Assembly: GCA_044892525.1 (NCBI GenBank)
Contig: CM097886.1
Location: 123,194,001 to 123,258,000, forward strand
Length of the DNA stretch: 64,000 bases
Source of the DNA: Schmidtea polychroa
Lineage: Eukaryota
Reading direction: 5' to 3'
Part shown: positions 42,109 through 45,600 of the stretch, one piece after another
Position numbering within the stretch: position 1 is the stretch's first letter
How the letters are laid out: the number at the start of each line of letters is the position of its first letter
Translations under genes and position numbers: made by a program
The notes under the pieces: generated by a model
Databases searched by the model: none
Told to the model about the DNA's origin: nothing
What the model saw: the letters and a program-made list of their open reading frames with translations, nothing else

Positions 42109-42645
42109 TCATGCACTATTTCTCCAGTTTGCCCTTTTATTAACTTTCCAGTTTTCAGATCGAGAGAAATTCCTTGTAGTTGCTCCATCGTCCATACCAA
42201 TAAGGCATTTTACAGGACTGTTTCTCATTACTGATACCCAATGAATTATTTCTTGATTTCCAATTATCAGTTTAACTTCTAATTTTCCTATAATATTCAA
42301 ACCATTATGTGACATTGATTTTATGATGTGGTTTGTGGATTTCATCTTGGCTCTCTCCTGGCATGTCAAAAGATTTTCCGCCACTATTGTGTGACTTGAG
42401 CCTGAATCTAATAGAGCTTCCACTTTTCCTTTATTGAACTGTATGTTTGTTCGAGGTTGTTTTCCTCCTACTACTGTTGTCATAAGTGCATAGCTACATG
42501 GTAAACCAAGCATACTTTTTCTTTCAATCTCAGCACTCGTTGGTTCAATCTTTTCTAATTCGATTGTGATATTATCTACAGGTTTCATTTCTTTTAATTG
42601 TTCATTTGGATATATTGGTGCTGTTGGTTTAAATGTTGGAGTGTA
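42109..42645 (-). CDS. Retropepsin-type aspartic protease, in frame with ORF2 after one TAG
   Basis: VEALLDSGSSHTIV active site, plus LNIIGKLEVKL and CLIGMD (flap and distal GxD region). The frame degenerates after LIGMD. Confidence 0.88.
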   Translation of the reverse strand, partial: YTPTFKPTAPIYPNEQLKEMKPVDNITIELEKIEPTSAEIERKSMLGLPCSYALMTTVVGGKQPRTNIQFNKGKVEALLDSGSSHTIVAENLLTCQERAKMKSTNHIIKSMSHNGLNIIGKLEVKLIIGNQEIIHWVSVMRNSPVKCLIGMDDGATTRNFSRSENWKVNKRANWRNSA

Positions 42646-45600
42646 CTATCTAGTAAGAGTATCAATTCCACTTAGTTTTGGCATTGGTTCAAGTAAAAAT
42701 CTGGATTCTGGCTCCATTTTACTTTTTATTACACTTTTTCGAAAGCATTTATGTTCTGATTCGCCGTTGCTACTGTCATTGTTATGATCGTCGTTTTTGT
42801 CTTCCGACTGACATGTAGATTCCTCACTTCTCCGGCCATTTCTCAACTGCACTCTTACTCTTGACATTTCTTTAAATTGATGATCTGTAATAAAGAATCT
42901 GGCCAACAATGGAATACAGCCAATAATCAATTTCCATGACCATCCAGATATTGCATATATTCGATGTACTGATAATATCTGTGACACTATCACCTTTGCT
43001 GTTATCACGATTACGTAAATTCCGATTAAGCCTGCACATGCTTGTCCCAAAAACATGAACTTGCCCCAAATCTTTTCCATCGTTTTGTATGTAGCTCGTT
43101 TGAAATGATCAGGTGTTAGCAAATACTCGTAATTTACTTTTCCTTCCCCATTCGGTAATATCGTGTCAATCATTTCTGAAATTACTCGTTCTTTCTTAGA
43201 TGGAAACAACAAATTTCTTTGAGCTTCTTCAATATCCTCGCTTGGGTACAAACCCATTTGTGCCATTTTGTTTAATGATGTGAAATTTATCAGGTATTCT
43301 AGATTTGTTGATTCTAATTTGTCTGGAGTCTTGACTCCACGATAGTCTGGTAAAGCTATCCACGAATCTGTTGCTAATCGGTATAAGGGTGCTAATAATC
43401 TATTACATTGTAAAATCTTTGGTTTAGTTTGTTCATCAAGCAAAATTCTAGTTATCGGTTCCATAAATCGTATCTTTCCACCGAGGCTTACTGGTAATTC
43501 GTTTGTGCATTTTTCATATTTAGTAATTTTCACTGAGACTTCTTTGCATTTGTAACTGTATAACGCTTCTCCAAAAATTCTCGCAAACACGCCACTTTCT
43601 GATATTAGCATAGGTGCTACTAAATTTGGATTCGTAATTGCCATCGCCATTCGATTTCGAAGAATCTCTTTGTTCAGCTTGCAATCGTTTAGAATCATTT
43701 CTCTATATACATTTTCCCTGATGTTTTGACTAAAATGAAACAAATAATCAATTTTATTATTAAAATAATGAGTAAGTTTAATATCATCTCTGTGAATTTT
43801 AATTTTTGCCTCTTCCACAACATTTCTAGGCACATAAACGCCTTTATAATTTGTTACATACACCATTCGACCACATTTGTTGGTGATTTCCTTTTTTACA
43901 AATCGCATGCCATCTTCTGGTAATGTAGACATTAAAATTGTTCCCATTTGTTTTGTCCATATTGGAGTTGACTTAATAGTATCATTTGGTCTATATTTCG
44001 TATTAAAACTATCAGGTTTATCTCTAAACTGTTCTCCCACTAGCTCTTTAAAATTCATAGTTTTTAAGTGTGCTAAATTACACTTATTGGTTTCGACATT
44101 ATAGACAAGAATCGATTCCCCCGTTTGACAATTTGTTTGTTTCATATTACAGAATGGATGTGTTTGTAGCTTTCCCGTATCATCGTCGAAAGCTCCTTCA
44201 AATTCTCTTAACTCTGTTAGATATTCTTCCAGCACAACTGTGTGCTGAACAATTTTACCATTCATTTTGTATGGTTCACCTTCACAATCGCCATTTGCTT
44301 TCATAACTCCTTTTACAATTATTGTTTCTCGTATCCTATGATTCAATTTTGCCTTTAAACGAATTTCCGGACTTATTTTTAATTCTCCGGTTTGAAATGC
44401 TGTTAGACAGTTTTCTGGGAGTACCTCATTTGGCCTAGGTATCGCATGCATTTTTATAAGTGACGTATGACTCCATTTGCCACAATAGAATACAAATGTT
44501 GTATGTTTGACAATACACTCTCTTACTTGAGTTCTTCGTAAATCAGACTCTTGATACACGTAATATTTTATATCATTTTCTATTTTCAGTTTACTAGGAT
44601 ACGCACCTGGGCATTCCGACATATCAACTACTGAATAAATTTTTCCCATTTCAGTTTGGGAGCAATCATATGCAACTAATGATGATGTCTGCGTAATTAT
44701 TGCACAAAATGTAATCATCATAAACATTGCCCACGGAAATATCATAGTTTTTCTCAGTTCTGGTCGAACTCTCTCATTGACTCGTTTTTGAGATGGTTTC
44801 CTCTCTTGATTCTCGTTTTTCTTTTCTGTTAGAGACGAACACAGTGTTCTCCAACCACCATTTTCCTTTACCCAGTTCATTAGATATTCGTTTACTAGTC
44901 TGGCAGCGATGTCTATCAAGTTATCTAATTTATCTGATTTCGCGAACGCATACGTTCCAATTTCTAAAACAATATAAGTTAAAGCTGTTATTATCACATC
45001 CTTGTTAATTTCATTTTTTGTTAAATTTTCAATTACTGATCTCTCGCAAAATGTATCCTCTTCCCCAAATTTCTGTACTACTTCAGGCAGTCTATTTTTC
45101 ATTTCTTTAACTACTCCTTTTAGTTCATCCTTTACTTCTATCTCTATTTCGAACATCGGATATACTGCTTTAACGAGACGTTTCAAAACGTCCTTAGTTT
45201 CGTCTACATCTTGTTCTAACCTCACTAAATATTTCTTTATTTCATATAAAGTTCTAACTTTCTTCTTTTTGCTTTCACCATTTGTTTCGCTTTCTGGTAC
45301 AAGTGGCTCTCCTTGTACTGTTTCTGTAGACTGATCTTTTTTATCCAGCTCCTTCTGATCATCACCACTAACGATTTCCTCAATTTCTTGATTTCCATTT
45401 ACTTCTTCACCTTGTGCTTCTGTGTCAGACTCGCTGGACTTAATCTTGATTTCTAAACTTATTCCCTTTACTACAACTATATGGTTCACTAAATATCCCG
45501 CTCGTCCATCTCGGATCAAACATACATTTTCACCCAGCTCTTGTGGAATACATCCGCAATCATATAAATATTCATCATCATCAAGTTCTTCACCTTTGTA

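Follow-up and report, generated by a model that had tools for sequence, protein, structure and literature searches.

A lone amber codon ahead of the protease in a decayed Gag-Env-Pol element of Schmidtea polychroa, and late-domain-like motifs in the Env tail of its family

Can a single amber codon that parts a viral-type glycoprotein from a protease act as a regulated switch, or is it damage in a dying copy? The question is raised by a retroelement on the minus strand of a 64,000-nucleotide stretch of Schmidtea polychroa contig CM097886.1 (assembly GCA_044892525.1, positions 123,194,001 to 123,258,000; hereafter the window, in whose numbering coordinates are given). A first-pass annotation of the letters alone had placed an in-frame TAG between the glycoprotein tail and a segment with PTAP, YPNEQL and a protease, and had offered two readings: regulated UAG read-through, as in gammaretroviral gag-pol, switching between Env alone and Env joined to a late domain and Pol, or a mutation in one continuous polyprotein. 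The codon is present where it was described, and it is very probably a nonsense lesion of a decayed copy, devoid of regulatory role, in a family that makes one polyprotein. The element itself is a decayed, 3'-truncated Ty3/gypsy-type copy of the published GAG-ENV-POL elements whose Env is of the herpes simplex virus (HSV)/glycoprotein B (gB) type.

The amber codon in the window, in other copies and in relatives

The TAG occupies 42646-42648 on the minus strand, in the context ACT AGA TAG TAC ACT CCA, and terminates an open stretch of 1129 codons (42649-46035). Past it the same frame continues for 178 codons (42112-42645) with PTAP, YPNEQL and LLDSGS, the last beginning 66 residues past the YP of YPNEQL. 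Pfam recognises Monjiviricetes_fusion (PF24664, E 2e-85) on the 5' side and the retroviral aspartyl protease RVP (PF00077, E 5e-5, above cut-off) on the 3' side, so a UAG does lie in frame between an upstream open reading frame and a protease, as in read-through of the gammaretrovirus type (type III). The pair of PTAP and YPx1-3L is not due to chance, since only 38 of 200,000 shuffles of the window linker yield both.

The state of the codon in other copies was read from Logan contigs of four of the 19 listed sequencing runs, from four studies, which were compared with the window over 42050-42900 at 80% likeness. None of the listed runs is recorded as RNA; X7 may be RNA. All nine contigs that cover the amber codon, from all four runs, have a sense codon there, the difference from the window falling inside the codon in each. 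They number three in run X1 (depth 335.5 of 335.5), four in X5 (8018 of 8018) and one each in X7 and X9, and account for the entire listed depth at the codon in each run. Retention of the TAG in other copies, which had been put forward as a check on the switch, is thus not observed. The three codons past the amber codon show silent third-position differences only (loose-end rows of X5, X7 and X9, inspected by hand); therefore the peptide is kept and the would-be read-through context is not. Third codon positions hold 24 of the 38 listed substitutions over the coding part and 19 of 31 downstream of the stop (p = 0.001), 40 of the 177 difference rows being listed. As judged from these predicted codons, the protease region shows translation under selection, which read-through and a lesion predict alike. 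Two contig types span 42532-42636, with 2 and 11 differences from the window.

Counting the amber codon, the window copy has at least five breaks (Table 1). No reverse transcriptase (RT), RNase H, integrase or 3' long terminal repeat (LTR) adjoins the window protease, as searched by tblastn with the Pol of a relative. Another relative, the metagenomic locus L001, has an in-frame stop of its own inside the Env ectodomain (L001:3058-3060), and such isolated in-frame stops are a frequent sign of decay in this element family.

Relatives that appear to be working do not have the stop. Two length-limited searches returned eight proteins, all with PF24664 and a protease in one stop-free chain; in five of the eight RT, RNase H and integrase stand in the same chain, which reaches up to 4057 residues. 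These relatives have one protease domain behind the Env tail, another ahead of RT and often a further one past integrase, so that the window protease is the first of a series and not the classical start of pol. When the length limit was lifted (best 150 of 1378 matches; 157 proteins examined, 115 with a membrane block), the glycoprotein was fused to a protease in 19 of the 23 closest relatives among the matches listed. Because protein collections favour stop-free frames, DNA loci were also fetched from metagenomes by Env patterns. Three were obtained; L001 stops short of the junction, and both loci that reach it consist of one frame each (3426 and 2693 codons). The nearest relative at the junction, P0066, is stop-free across it and carries PPAP-I-YPMEKL where the window has PTAP-I-YPNEQL. 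Scans of viral contigs returned no relative. Taken as predicted chains, the working relatives show Gag-Env-protease-Pol to be one uninterrupted polyprotein.

Lesion, sequencing error or programmed read-through

The sense contigs and the fused relatives support the second of the two original readings, a mutation in one continuous polyprotein. Some points weigh against it. Rare variants are lost from Logan contigs, which did not show the window's own allele at the amber codon; the long contigs match the window at only 86-88% identity (one X1 piece at 97.7%), and with 40 of the 177 difference rows at hand minor variants at the bases flanking the codon were unseen. A small TAG-bearing subfamily is therefore formally conceivable. 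In addition to the preference of protein collections for open frames, four of the 23 closest relatives are unfused, of which two stop at the membrane block and the others, P0145 and P0053, stop after tails of 33-34 residues that lack the motif.

An error of base calling or assembly, rather than a genomic mutation, is an improbable source of the TAG. Such an error would fit its presence in no contig, even though X1, possibly the source sample of the window, has 21 pieces of at least 99% identity elsewhere in the region compared; moreover the window contains four N gaps, and several of its single-base frame changes could be errors too. However, the absence of the TAG is expected, because contigs drop single-copy variants beside a high-copy family. 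The truncation and the several other breaks indicate decay independently, and a single change in this frame creates a stop in about 6% of cases.

There is very little to be said for programmed UAG read-through in the subfamily of this copy, by which mostly Gag-Env and some Gag-Env-tail-Pol would be made. A lone in-frame amber codon does sit between structural and enzymatic parts, the coding constraint described above persists past it (a continuous frame predicts the same), the Gag:Pol ratio is left unexplained by a one-frame polyprotein, and a distance of 12-14% separates the lineage of the window copy from the commonest copies. Against this stand the absence of the TAG from every covering contig, the silent variation of the nucleotides directly past it, a second and equally clean in-frame TAG inside the capsid domain, and the fact that the stop would detach Env from a motif located within Env in stand-alone relatives. 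Recognised signals are missing as well. In the part of PMC3542737 available to us, read-through sites are classed as UAG-CAR-YYA (type I), UGA-CGG/CUA with a stem-loop (type II) and UAG with a 3' G or a purine-rich octamer plus structure (type III), the structure being a pseudoknot in gammaretroviruses. The window site, UAG-UACACUCC (UAG-UAC), matches none of these three contexts as given there. Folding of the next 100 and 146 nt was no better than that of shuffles (z = +0.27 and -0.54), and local folds past the stop were weaker than -1 kcal/mol. A simple search for H-type pseudoknots (the first-pass annotation had advised folding for a pseudoknot) found none at the window stop as against 54 of 124 control sites, and Rfam gave no match within 41800-49600. 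The likeness to gammaretroviral gag-pol is the in-frame UAG upstream of a retropepsin; compared with the description in that part of PMC3542737 the window lacks the G after UAG, the purine-rich spacer and the pseudoknot, its stop is not conserved, and the protein upstream of the stop is Env and not Gag. With sense codons throughout, continuous relatives and no signal, a regulated choice between Env and Env-late domain-Pol is not supported.

Hardly credible, finally, is retention of the truncated Env frame by the host as a domesticated gene whose stop was selected to drop the protease: no unbroken frame in the window is longer than the 1129-codon Env frame, but that frame has no clear start or promoter of its own, begins at a frame change in mid-polyprotein, ends at a stop absent from every covering contig, and comes with no evidence of expression.

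For a one-polyprotein family with a nonsense lesion in this copy, a route of expression can be proposed. Gag would be made in the cytosol; the internal hydrophobic segment would then thread the class III glycoprotein into the endoplasmic reticulum, with the ectodomain in the lumen, and the single C-terminal helix would stop the transfer, leaving the Env tail, the proteases and Pol cytosolic again. The tail would be cytosolic, given the one clear helix past the ectodomain and an RT and integrase downstream that are presumed to need the cytosol. Host signal peptidase and the several proteases of the element would free the parts, so that read-through would not be needed, and splicing is a candidate for setting the Gag:Pol ratio from one frame.

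Late-domain-like motifs in the Env tail

Two sets of relatives were scored for motifs. The fused set held 21 relatives, scored from the transmembrane (TM) block to the first protease; the stand-alone set held 75 of 93 unfused proteins (590-900 residues with a tail of 20-200 residues; 18 were dropped). YPx1-3L was found in 11 of the 21 fused linkers (shuffle mean 1.5), and its stricter form with a preceding hydrophobic residue in nine (0.31 by shuffle), a count that none of 1000 shuffles reached. The stand-alone tails had YPx1-3L in 30 of 75 (shuffle mean 2.5), the hydrophobic form in 25 (0.49) and PT/SAP in 13 (0.7), and again 0 of 1000 shuffles reached any of these counts. After thinning to below 35% identity the stand-alone figures were 11/30, 9/30 for the strict form and 10/30 for PT/SAP. 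Selection through the tail of the query was checked, and one of the 75 alignments extends into it. Ten stand-alone proteins were looked up: three are named chuvirus glycoproteins, all with the YP motif, one is called hypothetical and six are nameless. No late-domain pattern was found in the window gag frames, nor upstream of Env in five of six long relatives.

By these comparisons the motif is shown to be part of the predicted Env tail, conserved with chuvirus-like glycoproteins. It is not a read-through extension, because stand-alone relatives hold it inside the glycoprotein's own tail; therefore the TAG would sever Env from it. The stand-alone tails make it less likely that the YP enrichment stems from a generic tyrosine sorting signal: neither non-proline YxxPhi (17/75 against 19.3 by shuffle) nor YxP (7/75 against 14.4) is enriched in them. 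PPxY (2/75) is not enriched there either. A role of the motif in sorting or endocytosis is possible, since YPxL also fits YxxPhi.

In the part of PMC8402826 available to us, the partners of these motifs are TSG101 for PT/SAP and ALIX for YPXnL. Retroviral late domains such as human immunodeficiency virus 1 p6 and equine infectious anaemia virus p9 share, as described there, the consensus and the order of PTAP followed by YPx(n)L with the window; they lie in Gag or matrix, whereas the window motifs sit in a glycoprotein tail. The late-domain idea of the first-pass annotation finds partial support: conservation and enrichment across the family hold for YPx(n)L, but among the fused relatives PTAP is not conserved.

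We lean, with modest confidence, towards an Env tail that would recruit ALIX (plus TSG101 in some members) to sever the membrane through the endosomal sorting machinery ESCRT, replacing a late domain in Gag. That the family-wide tail motif acts as a functional late domain is slightly favoured. The balance also tips a little towards the wider reading, in which chuvirus-type class III glycoproteins and the Gag-Env-Pol elements that captured them would carry their ESCRT late domain in the glycoprotein tail instead of in Gag or matrix, mainly as an ALIX-type hydrophobic-YPx(n)L and often with PT/SAP. As part of this joint reading, and held just as lightly, Env of the single-frame elements would power budding by itself, flanked by Gag and Pol, which would stay attached to it until the proteases cut. 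Several points count against these proposals. PT/SAP occurs in one of the 21 fused relatives, a count reached by 71 of 1000 shuffles; all three late-domain patterns are missing from eight of the 21; and thinning to below 35% identity leaves only four fused relatives, three with the motif. There is moreover a weaker second hydrophobic stretch past the Env TM helix, which bears on the topology of the tail, and we infer both that topology and ESCRT binding from sequence.

Layout of the element, its surroundings and known counterparts

The order in intact elements is LTR, primer-binding site (PBS), Gag, Env, protease(s), RT, RNase H and integrase. The pol content of the window copy is the first protease only, the order of protease, RT, RNase H and integrase being read in relatives. 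As expected of a GAG-ENV-POL element of the HSV/gB type, a gag with capsid and CCHC knuckles lies upstream of env, though gag is broken here, and a class III gB-like Env is placed between hydrophobic segments (Table 1).

Table 1. Features of the element in the window, listed from its 5' end
Feature	Position	Strand	Basis or remark
Putative 5' LTR, ~830 bp, TG...CA, 7-bp inverted ends	48548..49377	-	read from sequence ends
PBS, tRNA-Trp type	48526..48543	-	starts 4 nt past LTR end
70-bp tandem array in leader, 4.7 copies, 87% matches	48207..48533	.	
gag: capsid, CCHC zinc knuckles, weak ubiquitin-like end	46023..47941	-	Pfam
Frame change in gag	near 47810-47850 (~47830)	-	
In-frame TAG within capsid-aligned stretch	47478-47480	-	relatives' Gag aligns in one frame across it, 47810-47334
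Frame change from gag part to long downstream frame	46023..46035	-	relatives continuous at this point
Weak Bcl-2-like segment 5' of Env	44851..45105	-	PF00452 E 0.021, below cut-off
Hydrophobic segment, probable internal signal/anchor for Env ectodomain	44692..44748	-	hydropathy peak; role inferred
Ectodomain of the class III fusion glycoprotein, like chuvirus G and herpesvirus gB	43066..44688	-	PF24664 E 2e-85
C-terminal TM helix of Env	42985..43041	-	sole above-threshold hydropathy peak after ectodomain
Amber codon	42646..42648	-	nonsense lesion or assembly error; missing from 9 of 9 covering contigs, 4 runs
PTAP, TSG101-type late-domain consensus	42616..42627	-	in 1/21 fused relatives, 13/75 stand-alone tails
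I-YPNEQL, ALIX-type YPx(n)L consensus, Env tail	42595..42615 (YPNEQL 42612-42595)	-	enriched family-wide
First retropepsin-type aspartic protease, DSG ~42408	42190..42462	-	PF00077 E 5e-5
Two-base gap against other copies near 42188 (frame change) and loss of similarity ~42105: 3' truncation	42105..42190	-	contig comparison

A blastn search of the LTR-like segment against the window returned only itself, so no second LTR copy was found there. The first 12 nt of the PBS have one mismatch to the Trp_CCA 3' end of supplement file 2 of PMC13524379. The 70-bp array adjoins the PBS, its first unit overlapping it, and a 17-bp tandem array of 5.8 copies lies within the putative LTR (49025-49124). Pfam matches in gag were Retrotrans_gag (E 3e-6), zf-CCHC (E 1.5e-11) and ubiquitin (E 0.09, below cut-off). 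The predicted model of the ectodomain (predicted local distance difference test 88.6) found its best fold matches among chu-like virus glycoproteins (E 8e-36) and, among solved structures, in herpesvirus gB (E 7e-15).

Between Gag and Env, the window (44851-46350, minus strand) and the relatives P0005 and P0008 have weak ubiquitin-like or Bcl-2-like segments together with a duplicated DDE(Y/F)L.(D/E)CG block, P0005 also matching PF00452 (E 0.0015); ankyrin or C2H2 inserts are present in relatives too. BCL domains are carried by the large planarian Burro elements. Three or more retropepsin domains are found in P0002, P0003, P0004, P0006 and P0007, with at least four similar stretches in P0004. 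A region of about 300-400 residues between hydrophobic segments follows the integrase in P0002 (3286-3705), P0003 (3296-3718), P0007 (3528-3829) and P0008 (3598-3968); it has no convincing Pfam match and is possibly a second membrane-anchored ectodomain. P0039 (HBK71150.1), a polyprotein of Gag-Env-Pol type belonging to the same family of animal retroelements, is labelled as a hypothetical protein of a Flavobacteriaceae metagenome-assembled genome, probably through host contamination of the bin.

Elsewhere in the window, an adenain-type protease (38828-40459, minus strand; PF00770, E 6.5e-7) lies next to frames with no Pfam match that, we presume, resemble the major capsid protein of Polintons or adintoviruses. 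Broken gypsy-type RT and gag fragments at 31128-32119 and 13383-13892 (both minus) are separate from the element and not contiguous with it. Remains of DNA transposons occur at 7504-8109, 17088-17630 and 25615-27068, with a piggyBac/IS4-type DDE domain (E 1e-43), a weak BED finger and a weak hAT dimerisation domain. At 60081-61797 (plus strand) a RING finger, a coiled-coil and a further domain are spread across three nearby frames; we take this set to be TRAF-like, and it is probably a host gene.

The element type is already published. GAG-ENV-POL elements with HSV/gB-type Env are described from Nematoda, Bryozoa and Platyhelminthes in the available part of PMC13524379 (Chary and Hayashi), among them Smed_errantivirus_1 of Schmidtea mediterranea with 45 copies, of whose Env (supplement file 3) about 189 of 251 residues (~75%) are identical to the window by a hand count. 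With these errantiviruses, as presented there, the window shares gene order, Env class and fold and an ectodomain between hydrophobic segments; it differs in being broken and without Pol. It also shows an LTR-like segment with a Trp-type PBS, whereas no PBS is listed for the Smed elements in that part of PMC13524379. The single-frame organisation, the multiple proteases and the tail motifs were not found described in the main text of that paper, figures aside. It further reports that ENV precedes POL in the non-canonical metaviruses of nematodes, which captured a glycoprotein from an RNA virus (Sacco et al. 2022); the likeness to the window, taken second-hand from the same text, is this position of ENV ahead of POL.

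The glycoproteins of chuviruses (Jingchuvirales, PF24664) belong to the same sequence family and fold as the window Env. The tails of those of Tacheng Tick Virus 4 and Chuviridae sp. have YPx(n)L like the window, and in Fushun oxya chinensis chuvirus 1 PTAP stands two residues ahead of YP, as in the window. They differ in that each stands alone, is about 650 residues long, has an N-terminal signal, is 20-27% identical and is not part of a polyprotein. A search that included the main text of PMC13524379 and the available part of PMC10084718, with subscription papers and bioRxiv supplements outside it, turned up no description of late domains in the tails of these glycoproteins, and the novelty of the tail motif is accordingly provisional.

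As the read-through switch does not appear to be real and the element type is published, the finding as first posed is an ordinary one. Its by-product is a simple and strong sequence signal of late-domain-like motifs in the Env tails of chuvirus-type glycoproteins and of retrotransposons. To our knowledge chuviruses have no clearly assigned matrix protein. If the tails bind ALIX or TSG101, this would explain the release from membranes both of chuviruses and of elements that lack a late domain in Gag.

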